Assembly: GCA_018814885.1 (NCBI GenBank)
Contig: JAHIYU010000177.1
Location: forward strand, 40,025-104,024
Direction: 5' to 3'
Origin: a bacterium
GTDB taxonomy: Bacteria; Krumholzibacteriota; Krumholzibacteriia; LZORAL124-64-63
DNA length: 64,000 nt
Positions 5,284-20,127 of the stretch are shown one piece after another. Numbering within the stretch: the first letter of the stretch is position 1; the number at the start of each line of letters is the position of its first letter. A program made the translations under genes and the position numbers. Under the pieces are notes generated by a model. That model worked only from the letters and a program-made list of their open reading frames with translations. It had not been told where the DNA came from and searched no databases.

Positions 5284-5793
5284 CTACACGTTGGACCAGA
5301 GGTGCAAGACCCCCATCGAAACGAGCGTCACCAGGATTCCGGCGACGCAGATGCCAAGGATGATACACGGGATCGAAAAACGCAAGGGCAGCCTGAAGAG
5401 GTAGGCGGCCACCGAGCCGGTCCAGGCGCCGGTCATGGGCAGAGGGATGGCTACGAACAGGATCAGGCCGATGGCCTGGTAGCGGCGTATGAGTCCGCTG
5501 CGGCGTTCGGTGCGCGCGAAGAGCCAGGTGAAGAAGCGGTCGGCGCGGGCGAAGCGGCGCAGACGGCGCTCGGCCGGGCCCAGCAGGGTCAGGATCGGCA
5601 GCACCGGCACGAAGTTGCCCGCCGCCGCGATCAGGAACGTGAGCACCGGATGCGCGCTGCCGAAGCTGGCGGCCAGGGGCGTATAGGCGTAGGGGATGGC
5701 GCCGCGCAGCTCGAAGATCGGCAGCGTGGCGATCGCGAAGATCGCCAACGGCGGCGGCAGGTGCTCGGCCCATTCGAGTATCTGTTCACGCAT
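5284..5793 (-). CDS. Small polytopic membrane protein (small multidrug export-like, PF06695-type)
   Basis: 169 aa with 4 TM helices and an ELRGAIPYA motif near the N-terminus. Overlaps the pcm stop by 8 nt. Confidence 0.5.
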   Translation of the reverse strand: MREQILEWAEHLPPPLAIFAIATLPIFELRGAIPYAYTPLAASFGSAHPVLTFLIAAAGNFVPVLPILTLLGPAERRLRRFARADRFFTWLFARTERRSGLIRRYQAIGLILFVAIPLPMTGAWTGSVAAYLFRLPLRFSIPCIILGICVAGILVTLVSMGVLHLWSNV

Positions 5794-6457
5794 CGGCTGC
5801 GCTCCCCGTCAAACCCGACAGCATCGGCACGAACCGGCAGGGAACCGAACGTTCGACCCGCGCCTCTCCCCCGTGCTTGCGGTAGCGGTATAGGGTCTGC
5901 TCCTCGCCCGCGCCGATGGGCAGGACCAGCGTGCCGCCTTCGCGCAGCTGGTGGAAAAGCAGGGACGGCAGGCGGGCCGGACAGGCCGTGACGACGACCG
6001 CGTCGTAGGGACCGCGTTCGGGCACCCCGTCGCCGCCGTCGGCGGCGTAGATCTCCACGTTGTCGTAGCCCAGCTCGTCGAGCCTGCGCGCCGAACGCAG
6101 CGCCAGGGGTTCGATGCGCTCCACGCTCACCACCGAGCGGCACAGGTGCGAGAGCACGGCCGCCTGGTAGCCCGATCCCGTGCCGACCTCCAGCACGTGC
6201 GCGTCGCCGCGCAGTTCCAGCAGGGCGGTCATCAGGCCCACGATGAAGGGCTGGCTGATGGTCTGACCGTAGCCGATGGGCAGGGCGCAGCCGTGATAGG
6301 CGCGGTGGCGCAGCAGGGTGGGCACGAACAGGTGGCGCGGCACCTTGTACATGGCCGCCAGCACCTGCGGGTCGGCGACGCCTGCGCCTGCGAGCTGGTC
6401 GGAGACCATGCGTCGGCGGGCCACGGCGTAGTCGGTCGCTGCGGCGCGGCTCCTCAT
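5786..6457 (-). CDS. pcm: Protein-L-isoaspartate O-methyltransferase
   Basis: GYGQTISQPFIVGLM and VLEVGTGSGYQAAVL SAM motifs. 4-nt overlap with surE. Confidence 0.9.
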   Translation of the reverse strand: MRSRAAATDYAVARRRMVSDQLAGAGVADPQVLAAMYKVPRHLFVPTLLRHRAYHGCALPIGYGQTISQPFIVGLMTALLELRGDAHVLEVGTGSGYQAAVLSHLCRSVVSVERIEPLALRSARRLDELGYDNVEIYAADGGDGVPERGPYDAVVVTACPARLPSLLFHQLREGGTLVLPIGAGEEQTLYRYRKHGGEARVERSVPCRFVPMLSGLTGSAADA

Positions 6458-7227
6458 GGTTTCAACGGTCCCTCGTGGTTGAGCCCGGACAGCCGGGCGA
6501 GCATGATCTCGTGGGTCAGGTCCACGCGCAGGGGCGTGACGACCACGTAGCCCGCCTGGCTGAGGGTGGCGTCCGTGTCGGGCACTTCATCCCAGGTGGG
6601 GCCGTTGCCGCCGATCCACAGGTACGGCTTGCCGCGGGGATCGAGCTGCTCGGTGATGACGTCGCTGTATTGCCGGCTGCCCAGGGGGGCGACGCGCACG
6701 CCGCGGATCTCGTCCGCCGGCAGGTCGGGTATGTTGACGTTGAGCAGGGTGTTGCGGGGCAGCTCCTGGTCGAGCAGCGCGTCGAGGTGGCCGCGCAGAT
6801 AAGCCTCCACGGTATCCCAGTGTTCGGGCCGCCAGCTGGTGCAGGAGACGGCGTAGCTGGGCAGGCCCAGGATGGCTCCCTCCAGCGCCGCCGCCACGGT
6901 GCCGGAATAGGTGACGTCCTCCCCCATGTTCGAGCCGTGGTTGACGCCGCTGATCACCGCGTCGGGGGGGTCGTCCTTGAGGATGTGCTCCACGCCCACC
7001 AGCACGCTGTCGGTCGGCGTGCCGGTGACGGCGAAACGGCCGTCGCCGTAGTCGATCACACGCAACGGGACGCGCAGGGTGAGGCTGTGACTCGAGGCGC
7101 TCTGCTGGTCGGCCGGCGCCACGGTGGTCACCCGGATGTCGTCGCGTTCGGACAGCACCCGGGCCAGCAGGTTCAGGCCGTGGGCGTCGATGCCGTCGTC
7201 GTTGCTCAGCAGGATGTGCCGGATCAT
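6454..7227 (-). CDS. surE: 5'/3'-nucleotidase SurE
   Basis: N-terminal MIRHILLSNDDGIDAHGL signature. surE-pcm adjacency. Confidence 0.9.
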   Translation of the reverse strand: MIRHILLSNDDGIDAHGLNLLARVLSERDDIRVTTVAPADQQSASSHSLTLRVPLRVIDYGDGRFAVTGTPTDSVLVGVEHILKDDPPDAVISGVNHGSNMGEDVTYSGTVAAALEGAILGLPSYAVSCTSWRPEHWDTVEAYLRGHLDALLDQELPRNTLLNVNIPDLPADEIRGVRVAPLGSRQYSDVITEQLDPRGKPYLWIGGNGPTWDEVPDTDATLSQAGYVVVTPLRVDLTHEIMLARLSGLNHEGPLKP

Positions 7228-8039: not shown

Positions 8040-8492
8040 CTAGTCCCCGATCAGTTGGCGCACCCGACCCATGAAGGCTTCCGGATCGATCGGCTTGTCG
8101 ACGAACATCTCCGGCTTGACCAGCCCCTCCTCGCGCATGGCCGCGATCATATGGCGCAACGATTCGCGCAGGCAGTCAAATGGCCGCTCCTCGGTGTTGG
8201 CGGCGGCGGAGTCTAACTCTTCAAGGGAGGCGGCGACACCGGTCAGCATAAGCACCGGAATGTCCTTCAGTTTCTCGTCCCTTTTCAGCTGTTTGAAGAG
8301 GGTGAAGCCGGTCTTTTTTGGCATCATCACATCCAGGACGATCAGGTCGACTGCGTTCTCCTGGATTATTTGCCAGCCCTCACTGCCGTCATTGGCGGTC
8401 AGGGTCTCGATCCCCCCCTCCTCTAGCACCACCGAGAGGAACTTCACGGCGTTCACATCATCGTCGATGATCAGAACCTTCTTGTCGCTCAT
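8040..8492 (-). CDS. Response regulator, receiver domain only (CheY-like)
   Basis: KVLIIDDD...LIVLDVMMPKKTGF...PVLMLTG. 150 aa, no output domain. ATGA overlap with the upstream kinase. Confidence 0.85.
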   Translation of the reverse strand: MSDKKVLIIDDDVNAVKFLSVVLEEGGIETLTANDGSEGWQIIQENAVDLIVLDVMMPKKTGFTLFKQLKRDEKLKDIPVLMLTGVAASLEELDSAAANTEERPFDCLRESLRHMIAAMREEGLVKPEMFVDKPIDPEAFMGRVRQLIGD

Positions 8493-10393
8493 GTTCCACT
8501 CCTCGAATTGGGATGGGATAACGGCAGGATAACCCTGAAGAGGGCGCCCCTGTCCGGTTTGGACAAAATGATGATTTCACCGGCGTGTAACCGGATGATC
8601 CGGCTGGTGAGGGCAAGGCCGAGGCCGGTGCCCCACTTCTTCTTGGTGCTGAAGAATGGAGTGAGCACGTTCTTACGGACCTCCTCGGTCATCCCCACAC
8701 CGTTGTCCTGGATCTCGACCAGGACTTGACAACCCTGGCCGCAGGCTGTGCGGCAGACTATTTCCGGTGTTTCCCCCTCTTTGTACTCCTTCATGTCACA
8801 GGCGTCCAGTGCGTTCGTCAACAGGTCCATGAAAGTCATGTGGATGAGGCCGGGATCGCAGTGGATCGTCGGCAGGTCAGGGTCCAATTCGACCCGCAGC
8901 GCCACACCATTCTCGGCAGCCACCTGGCGAATGGCCCCGGCGGTTTCGTTGACCATGGCGTTCAGGTCGGTCGGCTCCGTTTCGATCTGCCAGTTCCGTG
9001 CGTACTTCAACATCTTCCGGGAGAGGTCGCTGATCCTCTGGAAGCCGTCTTCGATCATCTCGCACCCCTCGCGGATACGATCCCGCCGGTCCCTCTTCAG
9101 CCCGACCTGGACGATGTACAGCCCTCCCCGCAACGTGTTGAGCATGTTCTTGATCGCATGCTGGATGGCGGTGACGGCGCGCCCTATAGCGACGGCCTGT
9201 TCCGACTCGAACAGCTGCTGTTGCAGTTCCCTCTCGGTGGTGACGTCCTTGCTGATGCCGAGGGTGCCGATGGCCCGCCCCTCCTGGTCCCGCAATCGCG
9301 AGAGGGTCAACAGCACGTGGCGCTCAGCGCCGTCGCTTGTCTTGAACCGGGTCTCGATGTTGGCCACGTAGCCCTGCCCGGCCAACCGGCTGATGGCCTT
9401 GGCCCGTTCCTGTGGATCGGCGAAGAGGGTCTCCATCGGCAAGCCGATGACCTCGTCACGCCTGAATCCGAGCGCCTGCTCGGCCCCTCGGTTGAAGGTC
9501 TCGATTTGCCCGGCTGGGTTAACGGTGATGATCAGATCGGCGGAGTTCTCGACGATGCCCTCGAGGTATTTGAGGGTGCGACGCAGCTCGGTCTGATGGG
9601 CCTGCAGCTTGGTGGCCATCGAGTTGAAGGATTCCTGCACCAAGCCGATCTCGTCGTCTCGTCGCGAGTCGAACCGGTAATCGAGGTGGCCGGCCCCGAG
9701 AGCGCCGATGCCGTCGACCAGGCTCCGCAACGGCGCGACCAGCAGTCGGCGGAAGGCGATCAGCAGGCCGCCGATTCCCAACACCATGCCCAGTACGGCG
9801 GCCAGGGCCAGGAGTCCGTTCAGCTCCGCGATCTGGCGGTCGATGTCGGCAAGGGAGTACTCGGTGTGCAGAAAACCGAGCAGCGGACCTGAGTTCAGGT
9901 GGGCATGGCAGCCCGCGGTTCGACACCCGGGCTCGTTCAGGATCGGCGTGACCACCTGCAATACCCGGCCGCCGTCCACTCCAGGCAAGATCTGCTGGTG
10001 CTGGTCCAGGCTGGCGGTTGGCAGAGAATCGTCGGCGTGACACTGGGCGCAGGTCCGATCCTCGCGTGCCATTATGGTGCCGGGTTCCATCAGACGGGAG
10101 ACGGCCACCAGTCCATCCGGGTGAGACACGAGGCAGATCTCGCAATAGGTAGGACTCCAGCCGGCGATATCCTCGATGTATTCGCGGACCCCGCTGTTGT
10201 TGCGGCTCATCATCATCTCTTGGATGCCGCTGCGAATCGAGGTGGAGTTGAACTGCAGGACGTCGTAAGCCACTTCGTTGGCCGCCCGACGGCCGATGTA
10301 GCTGCCGAGAAAGCCAGTACCGAGTAGGATGACGAGAACCGCAATGACCACCACCGCGCTCATCCGCCAGGCCAGCTTGCTGCGTCGTTTCAT
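8489..10393 (-). CDS. Sensor histidine kinase with periplasmic c-type-haem-motif domain, HAMP, PAS, HisKA and HATPase_c
   Basis: Two TM helices flank an ~160-aa periplasmic domain carrying CAQCH and CRTAGCH. PAS domain (ENSADLIITVNPAGQIETFN), phospho-acceptor H box and ATPase G boxes (DNGVGM, GTGLGL). ATG at 10393 overlaps the SDR stop (ATGA). Confidence 0.85.
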   Translation of the reverse strand: MKRRSKLAWRMSAVVVIAVLVILLGTGFLGSYIGRRAANEVAYDVLQFNSTSIRSGIQEMMMSRNNSGVREYIEDIAGWSPTYCEICLVSHPDGLVAVSRLMEPGTIMAREDRTCAQCHADDSLPTASLDQHQQILPGVDGGRVLQVVTPILNEPGCRTAGCHAHLNSGPLLGFLHTEYSLADIDRQIAELNGLLALAAVLGMVLGIGGLLIAFRRLLVAPLRSLVDGIGALGAGHLDYRFDSRRDDEIGLVQESFNSMATKLQAHQTELRRTLKYLEGIVENSADLIITVNPAGQIETFNRGAEQALGFRRDEVIGLPMETLFADPQERAKAISRLAGQGYVANIETRFKTSDGAERHVLLTLSRLRDQEGRAIGTLGISKDVTTERELQQQLFESEQAVAIGRAVTAIQHAIKNMLNTLRGGLYIVQVGLKRDRRDRIREGCEMIEDGFQRISDLSRKMLKYARNWQIETEPTDLNAMVNETAGAIRQVAAENGVALRVELDPDLPTIHCDPGLIHMTFMDLLTNALDACDMKEYKEGETPEIVCRTACGQGCQVLVEIQDNGVGMTEEVRKNVLTPFFSTKKKWGTGLGLALTSRIIRLHAGEIIILSKPDRGALFRVILPLSHPNSRSGT

Positions 10394-12120
10394 GTTGCCG
10401 AGCTCGCCTTCCGGGGCAGGGGCCCGCAACGATTCTCGATCTGGCGGAGCAGGTTCTCGAAGATAACCCCGTGGAAAGGCAAGAGCACTAGCCAGTATAA
10501 CCGGCCGAAGAGCGACCGGGTGTCGAAGTAAGCAACGATGACCACGCGGCGCTCTTTCCCTACACGCCGCACGAGGAACTCGAGCCAGGCCCGGCCGGGC
10601 AATTTCATCTCCGACCGCAACAGGAGGCGGCGCCCCGGCCGCAGGTCCTCCACCCGCCAGAAATCGATGACGTCGTTGATCTGCAGGCTGCGCCGCGCCC
10701 GCCGGCCACGGGCCGTGCCGACCCCGAAGAACACGCGATCAATCATTCCCCTCAATCTCCACATCCAGTTGTTGTGGAACCAACCCTCCTGGCCGCCGAC
10801 CTGGCAGAAGGATTGGAACAGGTCGGCGGGCGATTGCTGCGTGGGCAATGAATACACTGCCCTGTAGCGCGGCCGCGGCGTTACCTCGTACAGCTTGAGC
10901 GCGAGCTCGTGCGCCGGCGGGTAGGCATCGGACCAGCGGGTGGCGACGTTGTCCTGCTCCTCGCGGCTGAATGCGAGCAGCAGCGCCTCGCGGTACCCGA
11001 GCGGGCAGAATTCGAGATGCTGCCGTATGTGGTCGTTCTCGCAAACGGTGTCGCTCTTCAATCCGTCCATCAGGCAGAACACGATCGGCCCGGGCACCGG
11101 GGTGATCAGGCTGAGGAAGTACGAATGCAACCGCAACGCGGACAGGGGGCTGCGAATGAACGAGCGCCGCACCCGCAGGAGATCGGCCAGGTTCCGCACC
11201 ATTTGCTCGTACGTGAGGATATCCCGCCCGCCGATGTCGAACGACCGACCGGCCGTTTCCGGTTTTTCGAGCACGCCGACCAGGTATTTGACCACGTCCC
11301 GGATACCGATCGGCTGGCACAGCCGATTCGACCACCGGGGAAACAGGATGATCGGCAGGTTCTGTACCAGGTGCTTGAGGATCTCGAAGGAGGCGCTGCC
11401 CGAGCCGATGATGATGGAGGCCCGCAGGATCGTCACCGGTACACGACCCTGCTGAAGGGCGCAGGCCACCGCCTGCCGGCTACGCAGATGTTCCGAGGGG
11501 GCGGTCTCGGCACAACCGACACCGCCGAGGTAGATGATGCGCTGGACGCCGGCTTTTTCGGCCGCCTGGCGGATGTTCACGGCCGCCTCCAGATCGGCTG
11601 CAGCGAAACGCGCCTGCCCCATCACCATCGAGTGGATCAGGTAGTAGAGGGTATGCACCCCTTGCAGTGCCGGCCCGAGTGTTCCCGGGCACATCGCATC
11701 GGCCGCCACGATCTCGGCCCGGGGCCACCGTTCCGCGAACCGCATGGCGTCGGCCCGGACCATGGCACGCACGCAATAGCCACGGGCGAGCAGTTCGGGG
11801 ACCAGCCGGCCCCCGATGTACCCGGAGGCGCCGGTGACGGCCACGAGCCCGTCGTCAGGCCGGGGTGTAGTGTCGAGATCGTGGCAGAAGAGTGGGTCGG
11901 GACAACCGGGACAGGCAGGCGATCCGGCCAGTTCGGGATCCCGCAGGATCCCAGCCTGTCCCCAGTTGGGAAGCCGGTCGGAGCTGAAACCCCTGTCCAG
12001 TCGGTGGGTGAAGTTCCGGATCTCCGTGCGGACGGCGGCCATGCCGGCCCCGGACTGGAGGCTGGCTTCCCCTGCGGCCAGTCCCGCCGTGGAGACGGCC
12101 TTGTCCGACGAATCCACCAT
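10390..12120 (-). CDS. NAD(P)-binding SDR-family protein fused to C-terminal DUF2867 domain
   Basis: Rossmann motif VAVTGASGYIGGRLV. C-terminal GWFHNNWMWRLRGMIDRVFFGVG...DFWRVE pattern of DUF2867. Preferred ATG at 12120 is preceded by GGAGCAGA. The ORF can extend to 12180. Confidence 0.7.
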   Translation of the reverse strand: MVDSSDKAVSTAGLAAGEASLQSGAGMAAVRTEIRNFTHRLDRGFSSDRLPNWGQAGILRDPELAGSPACPGCPDPLFCHDLDTTPRPDDGLVAVTGASGYIGGRLVPELLARGYCVRAMVRADAMRFAERWPRAEIVAADAMCPGTLGPALQGVHTLYYLIHSMVMGQARFAAADLEAAVNIRQAAEKAGVQRIIYLGGVGCAETAPSEHLRSRQAVACALQQGRVPVTILRASIIIGSGSASFEILKHLVQNLPIILFPRWSNRLCQPIGIRDVVKYLVGVLEKPETAGRSFDIGGRDILTYEQMVRNLADLLRVRRSFIRSPLSALRLHSYFLSLITPVPGPIVFCLMDGLKSDTVCENDHIRQHLEFCPLGYREALLLAFSREEQDNVATRWSDAYPPAHELALKLYEVTPRPRYRAVYSLPTQQSPADLFQSFCQVGGQEGWFHNNWMWRLRGMIDRVFFGVGTARGRRARRSLQINDVIDFWRVEDLRPGRRLLLRSEMKLPGRAWLEFLVRRVGKERRVVIVAYFDTRSLFGRLYWLVLLPFHGVIFENLLRQIENRCGPLPRKASSAT

Positions 12121-12180
12121 TCTGCTCCATTCACGGAATCTAGGCGAGGGAAGGTCAATCGAAGCGGGGTAAATCACCAC

Positions 12181-12491
12181 CGTCCAGGAATGGTTCCCCG
12201 CATCCGGATTATAGACCCATATATCCCACTGAACTAGTATATAATCTTAGCAACCGCCCATTCCTCGCCCTGTTGCCGGTCGGCGATAGATATCCGGCGA
12301 TGTGGGCATTCGTCGGTCACCCGGCGACCGGGCGGGCAATAGGAGGTTGATATTTCCAATAGCGGGCCTACGGTCTGGTCGGGCATCAGGTGCGCGAGCT
12401 TTCGAACGTATCTTTCCCGGCAGGATGGCATGTGGCAGTATAGAATGGACGGGGTTCTGAGGGTCAGGCATTTGATATCGGTTGATTTCAA
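12181..12491. promoter_or_regulatory. AT-rich divergent control region
   Basis: GC content drops sharply. A perfect TATAAT (plus-strand ATTATA near 12208-12213) lies upstream of the minus-strand SDR-HK-RR operon. A GGAAGGAG Shine-Dalgarno near 12525 lies in front of the plus-strand membrane-protein genes. Confidence 0.45.
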
Positions 12492-14984
12492 TTGTTACTC
12501 GATCGCGAGTATGATTGGCTCTATGGAAGGAGCGTAAGTACTAACGCCGCTTGCAAAGGTATTGCGTACCAAGTGACGAGGGGGGCTGCCATCAAATTCA
12601 TCACCTATTTCCTGATCCTGCTGGCGCTGGGACTCGGCGAACGTAGCCTAGGGCCCCACGGCACGCGACTGACCACGCTGCTGGCCCTCTGTGCTGTGCT
12701 TCCGCTCCTGTTGCGCGGTCTCTGGCTGATCGACTGGCGCATGTGGCGGGCCTCGCTCCCCGGTCTCGCCGCGATCGCGACTGCCGTCTGCTGGTACACG
12801 ACCGCGGACGCCGCGCAGTACTTCGCCCTGGGGGCGTCGCTGGCCTGCCTGTCTATCGCGGTGCGGCGCACCGTCCCCCGGGACGTCCTGGCCGACGCCT
12901 CACCGGCATCTACGGTCATCGCCTTCGCCCTTTTCGTGGCCGTCCGGGACCATCTCGACCTCTGGACCCAGCTGATCACTGCCTCCATACGGACAACGTT
13001 CTGGTTCTCGAATCTATGGGGGCAGTCGTTGCGTCTGGGGCCGACCTATTCCGGCCTCTGGCTGTTGGTCGCCTGCCTGCTGGCGCTGGTGATGATCGCC
13101 ACCGGAACGCGCCACCGGCCCTGGCGGCTGATCGCCGCCTTCGTGCTGCTGCCGCTGCTGGCCTTGGCCGCCATCCCCTTGCGCGGCCTGGTGCCGACCC
13201 ACTATCACGGCGCGCCGGCGACCGCCGTCCTCGCCTGGCGCCTGGTCCAGTTCATCCTGCTGCTGGCGCCGGTAGCTCTGCTGACCGCGACCCGCGGCCG
13301 GGACGAAGTGTTGGCGGCACAAGCCCCGCCGCACGCCGCCCCTTGGCGCGGGATCGCCACGGTTGCGTGTGCGGCCGCGGCTCTGGGCGGTCTCGTGCTG
13401 TTGAGCTGGAGCCGGCCCGTTCCTTGGCATCCCGGGCGGGTCTTGATCGACACCCGCGGGTCGTTCAACATGGAACCCTTCCGCTGGGGCGCCTACGCCC
13501 GCGATGTAGCCCAGGGCGCTTCTCTGGCCACGCTGCCACATGTGCTGGGCGCGTACGGTTTCGCGACGGCGGCATCTGACACCATGATCGACGCTGCCGC
13601 GCTGGCCGAGACAGACGTCCTGGTGGTCATGAATCCCGACACCTTCTACACCGAAGCCGAGCACGCGGCCGTCTGGGAGTTCGTCGACCGCGGAGGCGGC
13701 CTGCTGGTCCTGGGTGATCACACCAATATCATGGGTGTGATGGAGCCCTTCAACGCCCTGCTGCAGCCGGTGGGCATCGGACTGAATTTCGATTCAGTCA
13801 TTCCCAGGGTCGACCGCTGGTCTTGGTACGGCTGCATGCGTTTCCACCCCCATCCGCTGACACGGGGCCTGCGCGACGAGGCCGAGATCAAGCTCAGCGT
13901 GGGCGCCAGCCTGACGCTGGCAGCCGGGGCGATTACCTTGTTGAGCGGACGGGACGCCTACGCCGACGCCGGCAACTGGGACAACGCGCAGGGTGCCTAC
14001 CTGGGCAACATGGCCTTCGACCGGTCCGAGATCGAGGGTGATCTGCTCCTGGCTGCCGAGGCGCCCTACGGCCGGGGAAAGGTGATCGCCTTCGGGGATA
14101 CCTCGCCCTTCCAGCGCACCACCGTCAGCCTGTCGCACGAGCTGATGGCCAGGATCTTCAACTATCTCGGCACGCCCGGCGGCGCAGTGGCCGGGCGGCA
14201 GGTGCGCGGCGCCGGCGCGATACTGCTGGTCGTCGCCGGGACTCTGCTGCTGGCGCTCGGCAGGCGCCGCCCCATGGCGCCGGCGGTGTTCGCCATCCTG
14301 GCCTCGATCTGGCTGCTGGCGCTGGCAGGGCACGCGACATTCGCCCTGCCGCCGGCGCCGGTCGGCGAGAACGTGGCGTGGCTGGACCTGTCCCACGGCA
14401 ATCGTGTGGACCTGCATGCCGGCCGGGATGACGGTCTCGGCGGTCTGCAGAACCATCTGTGGCGCCACGGCTACGTGCCGCTGGCGATGCGCGCGTTCGA
14501 CCGCGACCGGCTGCTGGCCTCGGAGCTCTTCGTCACGGTGGCGCCGGCCTTCCCCTATTCTCGGCACGAGTGCGCCGCCCTGCGCGCCTTCGTCGAGAAC
14601 GGGGGCCTGCTGATCGTGTCCGCCGGCTACGAGGAGCGCAACGGTGCCGCGGACCTGCTGGCTGAATTCGGCTATGCTGTCGGTTCCACGCCCCTGGGCT
14701 CGGCGCACGTCGCCGAGACGCTGCTCACGGGACAGCGTGTCTACATGCACGAATCCTGGCCGGTGCTCCAGCCGGCCGGCCAGGGCGAGATCTGGGTCCG
14801 GTGCTGGGGGTACCCCATCGTGGTCTTCGAGACGTTCGGGGCGGGCGGTCTGCTGGTGATCGCCGATTCGATGTTCCTCAGCGAGAAGAGGCTGGAGAGC
14901 CCCGACGAATTCGTCGAGGAGAATATCGATTTCCTCCGCGCGGCGATCGAGACCGCACGGCAGCGGATGGGAGGTGAAAAGTGA
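12492..14984 (+). CDS. Large polytopic membrane protein, paralogue A (N-terminal multi-TM domain plus two repeated extracytoplasmic domains)
   Basis: 830 aa. Hydrophobic N-terminal ~300 aa, then two ~200-aa domains each with VLVV..P....E..AV..FV..GGGLLVLGDH-type motifs, separated by a TM hairpin. Clear paralogue of the next gene. Confidence 0.6.
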   Translation: MLLDREYDWLYGRSVSTNAACKGIAYQVTRGAAIKFITYFLILLALGLGERSLGPHGTRLTTLLALCAVLPLLLRGLWLIDWRMWRASLPGLAAIATAVCWYTTADAAQYFALGASLACLSIAVRRTVPRDVLADASPASTVIAFALFVAVRDHLDLWTQLITASIRTTFWFSNLWGQSLRLGPTYSGLWLLVACLLALVMIATGTRHRPWRLIAAFVLLPLLALAAIPLRGLVPTHYHGAPATAVLAWRLVQFILLLAPVALLTATRGRDEVLAAQAPPHAAPWRGIATVACAAAALGGLVLLSWSRPVPWHPGRVLIDTRGSFNMEPFRWGAYARDVAQGASLATLPHVLGAYGFATAASDTMIDAAALAETDVLVVMNPDTFYTEAEHAAVWEFVDRGGGLLVLGDHTNIMGVMEPFNALLQPVGIGLNFDSVIPRVDRWSWYGCMRFHPHPLTRGLRDEAEIKLSVGASLTLAAGAITLLSGRDAYADAGNWDNAQGAYLGNMAFDRSEIEGDLLLAAEAPYGRGKVIAFGDTSPFQRTTVSLSHELMARIFNYLGTPGGAVAGRQVRGAGAILLVVAGTLLLALGRRRPMAPAVFAILASIWLLALAGHATFALPPAPVGENVAWLDLSHGNRVDLHAGRDDGLGGLQNHLWRHGYVPLAMRAFDRDRLLASELFVTVAPAFPYSRHECAALRAFVENGGLLIVSAGYEERNGAADLLAEFGYAVGSTPLGSAHVAETLLTGQRVYMHESWPVLQPAGQGEIWVRCWGYPIVVFETFGAGGLLVIADSMFLSEKRLESPDEFVEENIDFLRAAIETARQRMGGEK

Positions 14985-17527
14985 TGCGCCGTTTCTGGCT
15001 CGCCCTCTGGCTGGCCGTTCTGGCTTGGGACGGTTTCTCCCCGCATATCGAATCCGCGGCGGCTCCCCCGCTGGCCTGGGCGGCCCTGATCGCCTGCGGC
15101 CTGCTGTTGATCTCGCGCCGGCGCGGCGACCAGCCCCTCTTCACCCGGTGGCCGTCCGTGGTGTGCGCGCTCGCCGCGTGCGGCGCCGGCTGCCTGCTGC
15201 CCTGGCCAGAAAGGGTGGGACCGCTGCTGGTCGCCGGTGGGCTGATACTCGGGCTGGTCCCCGTGCTGAACCGGTTGACCCGGGGCAACAACTGGCGGAT
15301 ACCGTCGGCCGCCGGCGGCCTGTTGTGGCTCAGCGCCGGCGTGTCACACGCTTACCGGGTATGGGAGGCGTCGTATCACGACCTGGACTTCATGGCCGGA
15401 CCGCTGGCTGCGTTTTACCGTCTGTTAGGCCTGCCGGCGGCCGCTGATCCGCCGCTGGTGCATCTGCAGGTGGTCGGCAACCTGCAGACGATCGATTGCA
15501 CCCTCGAGAAGCTGGTGGGCCATCCCCTGCCGGTGATCGTTGTGGCCGGCCTGGTCGCGATCTTCCTGCTGAACGGCCGGCGCGCCGGTTGGCGCCTGCC
15601 GTTGCTGCTGCTGTTGCTGGCGGCCGTCTACGCCTTCTTCAGGTCGGCGGCCCTGGGCCTGGCTCTCGAGCAGATGAACGAGGCCGGCATCTACTACCGG
15701 CGCATCTGGGTCTTTGGCAGCCTGCTGCCGCTGATCCTGTTGCTGACGTGGGTTGTGCCGCCGCTGCGGCATGAACGGGGCGCCGACCTTGCACCGGCAG
15801 GGCGCGTGTCGGTCGCCGCCACCGGACGCGGATGGACGGATCCGCTGCTGGCGGTCCTGCTGGGTGTCGGCCTGGCCGGTGCCCTCGGCTTCTACGATCC
15901 TGGCGATCCCAAGCCCGGCCGTGTGATGATCGACGAGAACCATTCCAACTGGGAGTGGTCGACCGTCGCGTTGAACACCGAGAGCTACGGCGTGCAGACC
16001 GTCTACAACTACTCCGAACTGGTGCGCTACCTGCGCCACTTTTACGCGGTGGACCAGAACTTCGCGGTGCTCGGCGACAGCCTGCTCGCGGCTGTGGACG
16101 TGTTGATTCTCAAGACGCCGACCAAACCCTATGCGGACGCGGAAGTGGACGCCGTCGTGCGCTTCGTCGAGCGGGGCGGCGGCCTCTGGCTGGTGGGCGA
16201 TCACACCAACGTCTTCGGCATGAGCACGAACCTGAACAGGGTGGGCCGGCATTTCGGCATGACCTACAACTACGACGCGGTCATAGACCTGCTGACCTAC
16301 GGTCGGCAGTACTACCGGCACCCGCGTCTGTTCGCCCACCCCTCGCTGCGCCACCTGCCGCCACTCTTGCTGGCCACTTCCTCCAGCATGGTCGGCCCGC
16401 TGCTCAGCCAGCCGGTCATGATCGGCCGTACCCTGCTCTCGGACCAGCTTGACTACTCCGTCAACGCGTTCTTCGGGGATTTCCGGCCGAGCGCCGGCGA
16501 ATCCTTCGGCGCGATGCTGCAATCCGTGGCCGTGCCCCGCGGCCGCGGTCGCGTGCTGGGCTTCAGCGACAGCACCATCTTCTCGAACTTCTTCATGTTC
16601 ATCCGCGGCAAGCCGGAGCTGGCCCTGGGCAGCGTGGCCTGGCTGATGTCGACCAACCGGTTCGGCTGGGTGCGTCACGCCCTGCTGGCGATGGCGGGGA
16701 TCGGCGCGCTGCTGCTTCTGGTGCGGTTGCCGCGACAGCACGGCGCGGCGCCCTTCGTCCTGCAGATGATCCTGGCCACTCTCTTCTTTGCCCTGACCGC
16801 GCGGGCGCTCGATCGCTGGACCGCGGCATGGTCCACGCTGCCGCGGCCGCACACTCCCCTGCCCACGGTGGCCTTCGACCGCGGCAAGACCGACTACGAC
16901 ATCCCGGACATCCGGGAGGTCGCCGATGAATCGCCCGCCAGCTTCCACACCTTCTACGTGTGGACCCAGCGTACGGGCTGGATCCCGACCACCGGGCTCT
17001 TCGAGGACTGCCTGGCCGCTGCGCGGGCGACCGTGCTGATCAGGCCCAGCGGCCACTACCATGCCACCGAACTGGCGGAACTGGAGGACCACGTGAGGCA
17101 GGGTGGCGGTCTGCTGGTGCTGGACTCGCCGCACAGCCGCCACTCGGCGGCGCAGTCGATCCTGCAGGCGTTCGGCATGGGCTTCAGCCCCGCGGAGATG
17201 GAGAGCGTCACGGTCAGCCCCGCCGCCGGCGGCCTCGAGACGACCGAACTGCACCACGTGCGCGGCGTGACCGGCGGCCGGCCGGTCCTGGTCGCGTCCG
17301 ACGGCACCGCCGTGCTCGCGTACACGGACTTCGGCCGCGGCAGGGTAGTGGCGATGTGCGCCGCGGACAACTTCACCGACGCGGTGATGGGTACCACCTC
17401 GGCCGTCCCCACGCCGGAGCAGCTGGCGCTCTATCGGATCGAGTACCTTATCTTCGAGGAACTGCTGGATACCGCTGGGGCCTGGCCCGCCCGCGACGGG
17501 GAACCGCCGGCAGGAGGTGGCGGCTAG
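14981..17527 (+). CDS. Large polytopic membrane protein, paralogue B (same architecture as 12492-14984)
   Basis: 848 aa, GTG/ATG start overlapping the upstream stop (GTGATG). Motifs VDVLILKTP...AEVDAVVRFVERGGGLWLVGDHTN and ATVLIRPSGHYHATELAELEDHVRQGGGLLVLDSP. Confidence 0.6.
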   Translation: MMRRFWLALWLAVLAWDGFSPHIESAAAPPLAWAALIACGLLLISRRRGDQPLFTRWPSVVCALAACGAGCLLPWPERVGPLLVAGGLILGLVPVLNRLTRGNNWRIPSAAGGLLWLSAGVSHAYRVWEASYHDLDFMAGPLAAFYRLLGLPAAADPPLVHLQVVGNLQTIDCTLEKLVGHPLPVIVVAGLVAIFLLNGRRAGWRLPLLLLLLAAVYAFFRSAALGLALEQMNEAGIYYRRIWVFGSLLPLILLLTWVVPPLRHERGADLAPAGRVSVAATGRGWTDPLLAVLLGVGLAGALGFYDPGDPKPGRVMIDENHSNWEWSTVALNTESYGVQTVYNYSELVRYLRHFYAVDQNFAVLGDSLLAAVDVLILKTPTKPYADAEVDAVVRFVERGGGLWLVGDHTNVFGMSTNLNRVGRHFGMTYNYDAVIDLLTYGRQYYRHPRLFAHPSLRHLPPLLLATSSSMVGPLLSQPVMIGRTLLSDQLDYSVNAFFGDFRPSAGESFGAMLQSVAVPRGRGRVLGFSDSTIFSNFFMFIRGKPELALGSVAWLMSTNRFGWVRHALLAMAGIGALLLLVRLPRQHGAAPFVLQMILATLFFALTARALDRWTAAWSTLPRPHTPLPTVAFDRGKTDYDIPDIREVADESPASFHTFYVWTQRTGWIPTTGLFEDCLAAARATVLIRPSGHYHATELAELEDHVRQGGGLLVLDSPHSRHSAAQSILQAFGMGFSPAEMESVTVSPAAGGLETTELHHVRGVTGGRPVLVASDGTAVLAYTDFGRGRVVAMCAADNFTDAVMGTTSAVPTPEQLALYRIEYLIFEELLDTAGAWPARDGEPPAGGGG

Positions 17528-18552
17528 TCTGCGTCGTGGCTCCGCAGCCAATCCCGCCACAGGACGAGTACGCTGTCCGGCACCTCCGGCAGGGGATCCC
17601 CGCGCCAGAGGCGCGCCCCCGCCTGCGCTTCCTCTTCCGGAAGCAGATGCTGCCCCTCGCGATCTAGGAACCGCGGCCGGCGGCGGATGTTGCCGTCGGT
17701 CCCCACGTAATCGGAGCAGACGCCGCCGGCGGCCCCGCCCTCGTTCTCCCAGACCTGGTTGCCGCGGAAGGTGGCGGGCGCGTCGTCGTCCAGCTGGAAG
17801 ACGGCGCTCTCGCCGCGGTTGTAGGCCAGGACGTTCTCCACGATCAGGGCCGGCGAGGAATCGCAGTAGATGCCGCCGCCCCCGCTGCTGGCGGCGTTGC
17901 CGACGATCGTGTTGGCGTAGATGACCGGGCAGGAGTTGAGGGCCAGGATCCCGCCGCCGCTGACGGCGCTGTTGTCGAAGATCAGGTTGTTGTAGACCAG
18001 CGGCGCACAGTCCTGGTAGGCGGAGATCGCCCCCCCCAGATAGCCTTCGTTGTCGCGGAAGACGTTGAAGGCGATCACCGGGCGGCAATCGTAGTTCGTG
18101 TAGACGCCCGGACCCAGGTAGCCCAGGTGGTCGCGGAAGACGTTGTTGATGATCAGCGGGCTGCTGCGGTGCAGGTAGATGCCGCCGCCGCCCGAGTTGG
18201 CATGGGGCCGGCGGCCGTTCTGGAGGGTGAGGCCGGCGATCGTGGTCGTGGAATCGATGCCGCGGCCGAAGAGGCAATAGCGATCGCCGGCGGCGTCGAT
18301 GATCGTCGAATCGGGCCCCGCGATACCGATCAGCGAGACGCCTGAACGCAGGGTGAAGCTGCCCCGGTAGGTGCCCGGGTTCAGCAGCAGGGTATCTCCC
18401 GGTGCGGCGGACTGCAGCCGTGCGGCCAGACCCTGGACGGAATCGGCCGGAGACGGGAACGTGTCGATCCGGGCGGCGGCGGCGGGACCGCCTGTCAGTC
18501 CGCAGGCGAGGCCCACGGCGAGAAACATCAGGATCGCGGCGCGGCGCGGCAT
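17524..18552 (-). CDS. Secreted right-handed parallel beta-helix (PbH1 / NosD-like) repeat protein
   Basis: Signal peptide (MPRRAAILMFLAVGLACGLTGGPAAAA). Repeated PbH1-like units (GGGGIYLHRSSPLIINNVF, GGAISAYQDCAPLVYNNLIF, GGGILALNSCPVIYANTIV, GGGGIYCDSSPALIVENVL). Start at 18552 (ATG). Confidence 0.7.
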   Translation of the reverse strand: MPRRAAILMFLAVGLACGLTGGPAAAARIDTFPSPADSVQGLAARLQSAAPGDTLLLNPGTYRGSFTLRSGVSLIGIAGPDSTIIDAAGDRYCLFGRGIDSTTTIAGLTLQNGRRPHANSGGGGIYLHRSSPLIINNVFRDHLGYLGPGVYTNYDCRPVIAFNVFRDNEGYLGGAISAYQDCAPLVYNNLIFDNSAVSGGGILALNSCPVIYANTIVGNAASSGGGGIYCDSSPALIVENVLAYNRGESAVFQLDDDAPATFRGNQVWENEGGAAGGVCSDYVGTDGNIRRRPRFLDREGQHLLPEEEAQAGARLWRGDPLPEVPDSVLVLWRDWLRSHDAD

Positions 18553-18637
18553 GCGACTCCCTCGCTGCTCGCGAAGGTGCCGGGGACCGGAGCCCCCGGC
18601 ACCTCGTGTTTGATCCGTTCTCCGCGGGGAGAGCGGA

Positions 18638-19609
18638 CTACTTGCGGTACTGGGTCTTGACTTCACCCCAGCTGCAATCGTCGTTGCTGACCTCGCAGGT
18701 CGGACCGATCGTACATGCGATACCATCGGTACAACCCGTAGTGCCGCTCGTGCACACGGTCGCTGCGGTGCAAGCGCCGGCTGCCGACGTACAGCTCTGG
18801 CCACCCGTACAGGTCGGACCGAACGTACAGGCATTGGCTGCGGAGGTGCAGTTGATGCCGGCCGTACAGCCGGTCGCGTCGAAGGTGCAGGCGTTGCCTC
18901 CGGTACAGCCGGGACCCGCGGTGCAGGTGCCGTCGGCGGAGGTACACGCCGTACCCAGAGTACAGGCGTCGGGACCGGTCGTGCAGTTCAGGCCACCGGT
19001 ACACTGCGTGCCGATGGTACAGGCGTTCGACCCGAAGGTGCAGTTCTCACCGAGCGTACAGTTGGTACAGTCGGTGCAGACATCCCACGTGCAACGCACG
19101 CCGGCCGTGCATGCGGCAGGCCCGAACGTACAGTTGGCACCCAGCGTGCACCAGGCGCCGGACGTACAGGTCTCGCCGGCCGTGCACCCGGAGATGCTGG
19201 TGCAGGTTCCACCGACCGTGCAACCGGAGCCCTGGGTACAGGATTCCGCGCCGGTGCACAGAGGCGTCTGTGTGCAGTCGAGTGCCGCCGTACATGTCTG
19301 GGCCGTACAGAGAGAACCCTGCGTACACCCTTCCTCTTGTGTGCAGAGTGCTGTCCCCCCACTGGTTGTTTCGTCGAACTTGTCGGGGTTGCCGGCGACG
19401 GTTTCCGCGGCGATGGCCGCGTCACCCACCCGCCAGACTTTCTGCTGCATCCCGTTTGCAGACAGGTCGGAGATGTGCTTGTACAAGGGCGATTCAACAT
19501 CAACCTCTCCTGCGATCCCCCGGGCGAATGCCGGCGTCGATCCCAGGACGACGGCGAGCACCAGCACGGTGCAAGCCATCAATAGCATTTTCTTCATCAT
19601 GATTATCAC
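18638..19609 (-). CDS. Secreted Cys-Thr hexapeptide-repeat protein (about 38 tandem CTxGxx units)
   Basis: Sec signal peptide. Good Shine-Dalgarno (AAGGGGGTG) 8 nt upstream of the ATG. Residues ~89-312 are built from C-T-x-[GAS]-x-x repeats. Ends ...CEVSNDDCSWGEVKTQYRK. Confidence 0.7.
   Translation of the reverse strand: MIIMMKKMLLMACTVLVLAVVLGSTPAFARGIAGEVDVESPLYKHISDLSANGMQQKVWRVGDAAIAAETVAGNPDKFDETTSGGTALCTQEEGCTQGSLCTAQTCTAALDCTQTPLCTGAESCTQGSGCTVGGTCTSISGCTAGETCTSGAWCTLGANCTFGPAACTAGVRCTWDVCTDCTNCTLGENCTFGSNACTIGTQCTGGLNCTTGPDACTLGTACTSADGTCTAGPGCTGGNACTFDATGCTAGINCTSAANACTFGPTCTGGQSCTSAAGACTAATVCTSGTTGCTDGIACTIGPTCEVSNDDCSWGEVKTQYRK
18676..19345. repeat. Coding tandem repeat, 18-nt (6-codon) period, about 37 copies
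   Basis: tgc-acN-NNN-ggN/gcN-NNN-NNN periodicity visible on the minus strand. The complementary strand yields the artefactual VQ-rich ORF 18402..19622. Confidence 0.8.
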
Positions 19610-19994
19610 CCCCCTTCAATAGATGCTGTTGTGGCGATCGCCCGCGAAGAGCGCCGCTGAGGCGGACCACAACATTCGTGCAGGGGAAAAGCCTAGCATA
19701 TCGGCGCACAGAATTTTCAAGAATCATGTGGGCAGTGGCTCTGCTTCTGTATGTAAATTCACCGGGGGTAAAAAATGACTTCTGCCTTCTGGAATTTGAC
19801 AGTCGCAATACCGATCTTCTTAACCTAACTTGTCGCGTGTTCAACCACTTGAGGACTCTTGACCAAGGGAGAATGACAGATCAACGTGGAACGGGGATAC
19901 GGATCGATCGAGCCGGAATCACCGCGAATCCCACCGGGAAGTTGAGGGGATGCCACGTAGGAGGGTGACCCGGAGGTGAATCGAGAAACTGCGG
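19610..19994 (-). promoter_or_regulatory. AT-rich upstream/leader region of the CT-repeat operon
   Basis: About 385 nt non-coding, with GC well below local average. Candidate -35/-10 (TTGAAA...TATGCT) about 60 nt upstream of the ATG. The remainder may be a leader or small RNA. Confidence 0.35.
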
Positions 19995-20028
19995 CGGGAA
20001 AAAGGAATCGGGCCACCGTCGGGCAACC
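19995..20028 (-). terminator. Intrinsic terminator downstream of tRNA-Pro(GGG)
   Basis: Minus-strand RNA folds GGGUUGCC-CGA-GGUGGCCC (G-C and G-U pairs), followed by GAUUCCUUUUUCCC. Confidence 0.4.
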
Positions 20029-20050
20029 CGTTTCAAGACTTGTGGTTCTC

Positions 20051-20127
<77 letters not shown>

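Follow-up and report, generated by a model that had tools for sequence, protein, structure and literature searches.

A 64,000-nucleotide stretch of DNA from the Krumholzibacteriota lineage LZORAL124-64-63 (assembly GCA_018814885.1, contig JAHIYU010000177.1, positions 40,025 to 104,024; hereafter the window) encodes a tandem pair of paralogous membrane proteins, here called open reading frames (ORFs) 1 and 2, each of which joins a polytopic N-terminal domain to two soluble domains of the GIFT fold. The ordered pair is ancient, recurs across bacterial phyla and in archaea, and is statistically associated with a neighbouring gene for a cysteine-repeat protein, the partner, whose relatives share conserved termini. 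The reading favoured here, held at a little under an even chance, is that the two proteins combine into a heteromeric platform on the outer face of the cytoplasmic membrane, to which the partner docks by its termini and by which it is retained, assembled or processed. None of the three genes in this module has a described function.

The two long plus-strand ORFs lie head to tail, are intact reading frames and have high third-position GC (Table 1). An earlier note on this DNA had described tandem paralogous membrane proteins with a soluble domain, a transmembrane (TM) hairpin and a second copy of that domain, and the description holds. BLASTP aligns ORF1 with ORF2 only in their C-terminal two-thirds (533 aa, 24% identity, E 2e-26). 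Comparison of family profiles by hhalign recovers the internal duplication, with the first GIFT domain (G1) matching the second (G2) at E 2e-15 in ORF1 and 1e-19 in ORF2. Between the paralogues, the two G1 domains match at E 1e-35 and the two G2 domains at E 1e-22. Since like domains are closer across the two genes than G1 is to G2, the domain duplication preceded the gene duplication, and both are old. Among family members of 1127-1165 aa, P0077 and P0084 contain three DUF4350 stretches and P0078 contains two together with extra GATase1-like matches; the count of extracytoplasmic GIFT modules seems to vary among homologues.

Profile and fold searches agree on the identity of the soluble domains. 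DUF4350 (PF14258) matches two stretches of each protein, with 53.9 bits for ORF1 and 42.1 for ORF2 against a cut-off of 30.4, and IFT52_GIFT (PF23355) scores 39.8 and 44.2 bits against 27.2. ABC_transp_aux (PF09822) straddles its gathering cut-off of 34.7, at 32.9 and 35.0 bits. An AlphaFold2 (AF2) model of ORF2, built from 37 family sequences, is confident (predicted local distance difference test 88, predicted TM-score 0.89), and the best Foldseek match of the soluble domains in the PDB is the GIFT domain of IFT52 (5fmr_A; E 1.3e-6, TM-score 0.69 on target), which the G1 sequence profile also finds (5fmr, E 5e-7). Other fold matches include OST48/DDOST, yeast Wbp1, ThuA-like 1t0b, GATase1-like 3rht and the flavodoxin-like domains of GH42-type glycosidases. 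The recurring motif that the note had picked out is the core GIFT motif and aligns to IFT52, and its guess of a class-I glutamine amidotransferase-like fold is right at the superfamily level. The note had also allowed for a mundane, well-characterised family; the hidden Markov model (HMM) matches are instead to domains of unknown function. Among columns conserved at 85% or more in G1 and G2 of the ORF1 and ORF2 families there is no Cys, and the motif after the GGGL strand, GDHTN, likewise has none, so these domains are not catalytic class-I glutamine amidotransferases.

G1 of ORF2 is dense in conserved motifs (DPGxxKxGR, DExHSxWE, YNY, KTPT, GGGLxLxGDHTNVFG, HP, TS, GRV, DSTxFSNF and GKxE). 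Its invariant polar residues comprise E319, H321/S322/W324, Y342/N343, K378/T381, D407-H408-T409-N410, H453, R524, D530-S531-T532, S535-N536-F537 and K544/E546. Columns conserved at 85% or more make up 30% of G1 in ORF2 and 19% in ORF1; ORF2 is, by sequence conservation, the more constrained paralogue. Such a density of invariant polar residues is enzyme-like, and with weak ThuA and GLMA-type matches and the fold matches it would suit an extracytoplasmic ThuA-like enzyme acting on a small molecule or glycan, the cysteine-repeat gene being merely co-located or co-regulated. That explanation is distinctly improbable: ThuA (PF06283) scores 18.4 and 16.6 bits against a cut-off of 33.4, the likeness to 1t0b is at the level of fold only, no sugar uptake or catabolic genes are linked, and the partner association recurs across phyla in which the flanks are otherwise unrelated.

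The AF2 model and hydropathy together place nine N-terminal TM helices in ORF2 ahead of G1 (residues 306-562), the hairpin (562-617) and G2, where the note had predicted about eight helices. The N-terminal domains of ORF1 and ORF2 give no BLAST alignment and only a weak co-linear profile match (hhalign E 1.6e-3), with seven columns conserved at 85% or more in ORF2 and two in ORF1. In the ORF2 domain R221 is invariant, H133 and E176 are conserved, and the external motifs are LPWPE and ADPPxVH...TxEKLxG, the latter carried by an external insert (residues 132-181) that is modelled as a helix and a three-stranded sheet. Pfam searches of 19 isolated N-terminal domains at E up to 10 returned no recurring family, only single chance-level matches, and no PDB relative was found for the ORF2 domain. 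A profile HMM search of 1.84 billion representative proteins gave 622 clusters; only the ORF1/ORF2 family appears among the matches listed, and in the best 150 of the 622 the match is N-terminal or nearly so, in proteins of ~750-1,170 aa or in shorter fragments. Judged by these searches, the N-terminal membrane domain is family-specific and newly defined, with no Pfam or PDB relative. An exosortase or archaeosortase identity was considered and rejected: none of the 19 domains matches Exosortase_EpsH at E up to 10, and the invariant Cys/Arg/His set is missing, with position 174 variable (Cys, Val, Ala, Thr, Phe or Leu) and R221 the sole invariant residue.

Arg/Lys-rich loops in ORF2 fall at residues 43-55, 198-206, 259-285 and 586-589. 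By the positive-inside rule, these loops would place the N-terminus in the cytoplasm and both GIFT domains and the insert 132-181 outside, and R221 would then lie mid-membrane, within TM7. Neither pair protein contains a cytoplasmic domain or an ATPase.

The two genes are joined at a compact junction (GGAGGTGAAAAGTGATGCGC). A Shine-Dalgarno sequence, GGAGG (14970-74), precedes the ORF2 start by ~10 nt, and the TGA stop of ORF1 (14982-84) overlaps both candidate ORF2 starts, GTG at 14981 and ATG at 14984, so the genes are translationally coupled, as the note had proposed. The ATG is favoured since ORF2 orthologues begin MRR.W. The start of ORF1 is most likely the GTG at 12573, because the resulting 803 aa fit the 810-aa orthologue called in the closest relative, locus L001. 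The intergenic region upstream presumably holds the ORF1 promoter; no sigma-70 consensus site was found in 12181-12572.

Table 1. Features of the gene pair and its surroundings, in window coordinates.
Feature	Coordinates	Strand	Details
HAMP-PAS-HATPase histidine kinase	8489-10429	-	beyond the NAD_binding_10/DUF2867 gene
NAD_binding_10/NmrA + DUF2867 gene	10390-12180	-	divergent, upstream of ORF1
Divergent intergenic region 5' of ORF1	12181-12572	.	53% GC
ORF1	12573-14984	+	803 aa from GTG; maximal ORF from TTG at 12492
ORF1 N-terminal polytopic membrane domain	12573-13427	+	hydropathy; poorly conserved
ORF1 GIFT domain 1 (G1)	13428-14201	+	DUF4350, IFT52_GIFT and ABC_transp_aux Pfam matches; GDHTN, FD, GASL, GDTS motifs
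ORF1 TM hairpin	14202-14333	+	hydropathy segments 571-589, 595-613
ORF1 GIFT domain 2 (G2)	14334-14981	+	second DUF4350 stretch and DUF4159 match
Coupling junction	14970-14986	+	Shine-Dalgarno GGAGG, ORF1 stop, two overlapping ORF2 start codons
ORF2	14984-17527	+	847 aa from ATG; alternative GTG start at 14981
ORF2 N-terminal 9-TM domain	14984-15895	+	AF2 model, hydropathy
ORF2 GIFT domain 1 (G1)	15896-16666	+	Pfam, profile and Foldseek matches
ORF2 TM hairpin	16667-16831	+	AF2 helices 562-585, 590-617; hydropathy
ORF2 GIFT domain 2 (G2)	16832-17524	+	DUF4350 stretch 674-799; hhalign
Beta-helix gene, NosD/CASH-like	17524-18552	-	342 aa, secreted, right-handed; Pfam Beta_helix 1.8e-13
11-bp stem, 9 G-C pairs, AGGTGCCGGGG...CCCCGGCACCT	18575-18604		in the 85-nt gap from the stop of the cysteine-repeat gene to the beta-helix start
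Cysteine-repeat ("CT-repeat") gene	18638-19609	-	Sec signal peptide, conserved helix, Cys repeats
Terminator-like hairpin	20009-20030		after tRNA-Pro
tRNA-Pro (GGG)	20051-20127	-	0.45 kb beyond the cysteine-repeat gene

The pair is widely distributed. A pattern scan across GTDB species, each represented by one genome, identified 299 stretches that encode a relative, and nearly all carriers are metagenome-assembled genomes (MAGs), as are almost all of the best 80 of the 299. Records titled Desulfatirhabdium butyrativorans (a MAG) and Clostridiales bacterium COT073 are among those matched. Among the matches listed, bacterial carriers belong to Gemmatimonadales, Krumholzibacteriia, Desulfobacterota, Planctomycetota, Verrucomicrobiota, Chloroflexota, Bacillota, Zixibacteria, KSB1 and Nitrospirota, joined by archaea of the Thermoplasmatota. 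The check on conservation that the note had called for gives a clear result: an ORF1-type gene lies directly upstream of an ORF2-type gene on the same strand, usually overlapping it, in ~65 of the 86 fetched loci, and gene calls from independent sources agree on this order. In comparison with the relative L001, which is 84% identical, ORF1 has a dN/dS of 0.28 and ORF2 one of 0.29, which indicates purifying selection on both; neither copy is decaying, contrary to the note's worry about a pseudogene.

These data bear directly on the idea of a recent local tandem duplication in an accessory island, one copy perhaps decaying, which the lower GC of the flanking intergenic regions and a tRNA-Pro gene 0.45 kb beyond the cysteine-repeat gene would favour. 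The note, too, had seen an unusual double duplication in an AT-flanked accessory block. The GC dips are confined to the two flanking intergenic regions (53% and 52%; the lowest-GC segment of the region, at 52%, is 19700-19999); these are ordinary intergenic stretches in a genome of 65-70% GC, which the genes themselves match. The paralogues are only 24% identical, the ordered pair is kept from bacteria to archaea, both genes are under purifying selection, and the same MerR-GpsA-Der-DUF512 genes adjoin the module in the window and in L001. A recent duplication is thus hardly credible, and a genomic-island or pseudogene reading is refuted by the comparative data on conservation, dN/dS and GC.

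Adjacency to CT-repeat genes, remarked on in the note, proved the most informative contextual feature. The partner in the window has a Sec signal peptide (…TPAFA|RG) and the N-terminal peptide RGIAGEVDVESPLYKHISDLSANGMQQKVW; a conserved helix carries ESPLYKHISDLSANGM (short helix sequence ESPLYKHISDLSANGMQQKVW), and the protein ends in SWGEVKTQYRK (C-terminal peptide …DCSWGEVKTQYRK). It contains 39 Cys, 38 of them in the mature part, and 37 Cys-Thr (CT) dipeptides. Within a region of ~230 residues made up of 22% Thr, 16% Cys and 15% Gly, the Cys are spaced by 6 residues (24 times) or 7 (9 times). This period and composition suggest a Cys-ladder beta-solenoid, comparable to that of beetle antifreeze proteins. 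The gene contains no DNA-level tandem repeat. A homologue search with the window protein gave 8 matches only, owing to its low complexity, and the family is therefore defined by its termini. Pfam and NCBIfam assign the partners to no family, though some carry accessory Ig, T9SS-CTD or PD40 domains.

Partners were counted from six-frame ORFs with composition filters, so the fractions are approximate. With the strict filter, 31 of 81 loci show a cysteine-repeat ORF no more than 3 kb from the pair; the density there is 0.082 per kb, compared with 0.0055 farther out. The lax filter finds a cysteine-repeat ORF near the pair in 52 of 84 loci and in 39 of the 55 well-flanked ones (at least 1.5 kb on both sides of the pair); ORFs that also bear the N-terminal motif described below occur at 0.073 per kb near the pair and 0.0044 far from it. 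A motif search adds five loci with a lower-Cys partner, four of them well-flanked, for 43 of 55. Three distant loci show the same pattern of pair and cysteine repeat. Repeat units vary widely among the partners, which come from many phyla (CTxGxx, xxTC, TCDGxx, TMNPMDxxC, DPxxPEC, ETRCPxx, TNPxYDPxC), yet each unit holds a single Cys, and a partner has between 19 and 127 Cys in all.

The ends of the partners are far more uniform than the repeats. Just after the signal peptide comes the motif S-P-[LAIV]-[FY]-x-x-[SA]-L-x-x-[AST]-[VI]-x-x-[LM]-[ED]-G; in an alignment of 36 partners the Ser is kept in 33, the Pro in 32 and the Phe in 31, although a match within the signal peptide put two of the rows (the window and L002) out of register. 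Many partners end in [ST]WGx[IVL]Kxx[YF][RK], and 16 of the 19 ORFs with this ending in the fetched loci are partners. In Victivallales, Phycisphaerales and L088 a C-terminal TM helix and basic tail stand in place of the motif; partners with this arrangement include those of loci L010, L012 and L088. Alternation of the motif with a TM anchor suggests that the partner C-terminus is held at the membrane.

Two further loci touch on the partner family. In L043, a Limnocylindria MAG, two overlapping ORFs outside the cysteine-repeat family (13300-14619 and 13326-13802, both plus strand) end in TWGSIKALYR and TWGKLKALYR, so the C-terminal motif may be a more general tag in some genomes. In L004, a Krumholzibacteriia MAG, a 533-aa minus-strand ORF (5614-7215) encodes a 64-Cys CT-repeat protein, and the source gene calls place short plus-strand genes (5705-6595) across it. 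Cysteine-repeat partners may be mis-annotated in high-GC genomes.

The platform reading assembles these observations as follows. ORF1 and ORF2 would be two subunits of one ancient heteromeric complex of the cytoplasmic membrane, with the four GIFT domains and the polar, conserved surface of the ORF2 membrane domain all turned toward the periplasm or exterior, and the complex would be genetically dedicated to the neighbouring Sec-exported cysteine-repeat protein. It might recognise the partner by its two ends, the S-P-[LA]-[FY]..L..[AST][VI]..[LM]E helix and the [ST]WGx[IVL]Kxx[YF] motif, and hold or mature the hypervariable cysteine-repeat rod at the outer face of the membrane. The invariant polar residues in the G1 and membrane domains of ORF2 suggest that it would be the ligand-binding or catalytic subunit, with ORF1 a more degenerate scaffold partner. 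A more specific version, in which the pair and its client make up an undescribed, ancient three-component system that recognises the partner tags and, by way of a membrane domain whose fold has no solved or annotated counterpart, anchors, polymerises or covalently modifies the Cys-ladder protein in many uncultured bacterial phyla and some archaea, is offered tentatively, as possible rather than probable. If true, it would represent a new class of dedicated machinery for maturing or anchoring surface proteins, similar in concept to sortases and exosortases and unrelated to them.

Several observations weigh against a dedicated heteromeric platform. About a quarter of well-flanked loci, most of those from Thermoplasmatota included, have no detectable cysteine-repeat neighbour, and some genomes encode a lone ORF2-type gene (e.g. 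L005, L028 and L033). Gene order is the one ground for supposing that the two proteins heterodimerise. The strongly conserved polar residues of G1 would suit a catalytic centre no less well than a docking surface, yet the data point to no particular chemistry. The platform model also leaves unexplained the beta-helix gene beside the pair.

That gene and ORF2 converge and share 4 nt at their stop ends, so that no terminator could fit between the two transcription units. In the window it comes after the cysteine-repeat gene, and the G-C-rich stem in the gap between them could serve as an attenuator within the operon or affect mRNA stability, setting the amount of one product relative to the other. 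The beta-helix gene adjoins the pair only in the closest relatives (L001, L002, L004, L007 and L009). It scores 41.9 bits against the NosD model TIGR04247, for which the cut-off is 300, and no nos genes were seen nearby.

Two of the alternatives make use of this neighbour. One casts the module as a glycosylation machine resembling the oligosaccharyltransferase (OST): the membrane domain would bind a polyprenol-linked glycan at a site formed by R221 with E176/K177 and the H133 face, the GIFT domains would be scaffolds like those of OST48 and Wbp1, and the partner would be the Thr-/Asn-rich acceptor. Foldseek matches to OST48 (8b6l_N, 6s7t_G) and Wbp1 (6ezn_G) at E 5e-6 to 1e-4 are consistent with this proposal, as are the five N-C-T sequons and high Thr content of the window partner, the CASH/NosD-type beta-helix gene adjoining the pair, and glycosyltransferase or sialic-acid genes near the pair in L005, L033 and L088. 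No STT3/AglB-like gene occurs in the contexts examined, and neither ORF matches the Pfam OST48 family at E up to 1. An OST-like machine is considered unlikely.

The other alternative is periplasmic metal or thiol handling, in which the Cys ladder binds metal or forms disulfides, the pair loads, oxidises or anchors it by way of invariant His, Asp and Glu residues, and the NosD-like beta-helix chaperones metal or sulfur, as in the assembly of N2O reductase. Partners with 19-127 Cys at fixed spacing invite such a view, and G1 offers the invariant GDHTN with H408 as well as H453, D530 and E319; the pair adjoins a beta-helix gene of NosD type, L088 has a DsbD_N gene close to its pair, and many hosts are apparently anaerobic sediment lineages. 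However, neither a CxxC nor any Cys is conserved in the pair, genes for metal transport are not linked to it, and the beta-helix gene is confined to the closest relatives and falls far short of the NosD cut-off. We regard this explanation as quite unlikely.

A further alternative follows the database annotation, which names the pair proteins "GldG family", "DUF4350 domain-containing" or hypothetical, and takes them for GldG-type accessory subunits of an ABC-2 exporter encoded elsewhere. The borderline ABC_transp_aux scores agree with this annotation, and an identical partial protein is named 'GldG family protein' at NCBI. The GldG equivalog TIGR03521, which provides the sole NCBIfam matches, scores 14.1 and 9.6 bits, far below its cut-off of 389.85. 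Only 3 of 84 loci have an ORF with the Walker A and LSGGQ motifs of an ATP-binding cassette (ABC) ATPase no more than 3 kb from the pair (including a 660-aa ORF in L007), and the window has none; the nine TM helices and paired GIFT domains also differ from the GldG architecture. GldG-type exporter subunits are therefore very unlikely; GldG identity as such was rejected on the TIGR03521 score and the lack of association with an ABC-2 permease or ATPase. The note had suggested a survey for co-occurring ABC, MoxR or exosortase genes, and this gave little: all-against-all clustering of ORFs yields no MoxR, exosortase or ABC cluster among recurrent neighbours, and no MoxR or exosortase was seen in the Pfam-annotated contexts examined.

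On the other side of the pair, the note had placed a haem-sensor module divergent from ORF1. The immediate divergent neighbour is instead the NAD_binding_10/DUF2867 gene, whose product has an N-terminal extension of ~110 aa without a domain match and which is not kept beside the pair in relatives; a HAMP-PAS kinase does lie beyond it. As the flanks on this side differ in relatives, the kinase is probably unrelated to the pair.

In archaea the surroundings are different again. Thermoplasmatota loci without a partner have BPL_N (GATase1-like) with Big_7, or CARDB, neighbours, and the BPL_N and Big_7 gene may be an alternative partner there. In L046 (8589-10052), L051 (13164-14783) and L081 (6474-7964), all on the minus strand, a gene for a BPL_N and Big_7 protein of ~500 aa lies convergent and downstream.

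GIFT, DUF4350 and GldG-like domains are widespread, and to our knowledge no bacterial member has a defined molecular function. A pair of such proteins with a linked client that carries terminal tags makes the binding and function of bacterial GIFT domains experimentally testable. By their domains the proteins belong to the DUF4350 and GIFT families; what is new is the architecture of these GIFT-domain membrane proteins, their membrane domain and a defined client, which belongs to a newly defined family of secreted cysteine-ladder proteins now annotated as hypothetical or in the wrong frame, as in L004. Most carriers belong to uncultured lineages, in which the system may thus be relevant to envelope or surface biology.

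Comparison with known systems sets the pair apart from each of them in turn, and a full-text literature search on DUF4350, the GIFT domain, GldG and the Pfam accessions returned no description of the architecture or the partner. IFT52 (5fmr, 5fms) provides the best sequence and fold match of G1, with the common core PxxxFxxxExxxlxxFVxxGG, but it is a cytoplasmic eukaryotic transport subunit without the GDHTNVFG and DSTxFSNF motifs, both of them invariant across the pair family. GldG, of the ABC_transp_aux family, is an accessory protein of the GldAFG gliding-motility ABC transporter and has one periplasmic region between two TM helices. Like the pair it presents an extracytoplasmic GIFT/GATase1-like domain on the cytoplasmic membrane, and its function is likewise unknown; the pair proteins differ in having two GIFT domains each and a polytopic N-terminal domain, no ABC partner, an obligate-looking paralogue and a link to a cysteine-repeat protein.

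The eukaryotic OST48/DDOST and Wbp1 subunits are tethered by a TM helix on the non-cytoplasmic side and act as scaffolds in a multi-subunit complex that acts on secreted proteins. Their likeness to the pair is a GIFT-like fold match only (TM-score ~0.4 on target), and they differ in that the pair has neither an STT3/AglB-type catalytic partner nearby nor a Pfam OST48 match.

For the archaeal DUF4350 proteins of arCOG01314, Makarova et al. (2015, PMC5898192) predict an extracellular position, anchored in the membrane, within a complex for secretion or membrane remodelling. These archaeal proteins share the DUF4350 domain with the pair but have no 9-TM domain and no paired paralogue.

Exosortase, archaeosortase, rhombosortase and myxosortase offer an analogy at the level of the system only, that of a polytopic protein linked to terminally tagged secreted proteins, and it extends to the C-terminal TM helix and basic tail of some cysteine-repeat partners. 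The pair is unrelated to these sorting enzymes in sequence or fold, and its N-terminal domain conserves no catalytic set of Cys, Ser or His. The substrates differ as well, since the commonest partner tag is a short terminal motif in place of a tripartite TM signal, and the partners carry a conserved N-terminal helix in addition.

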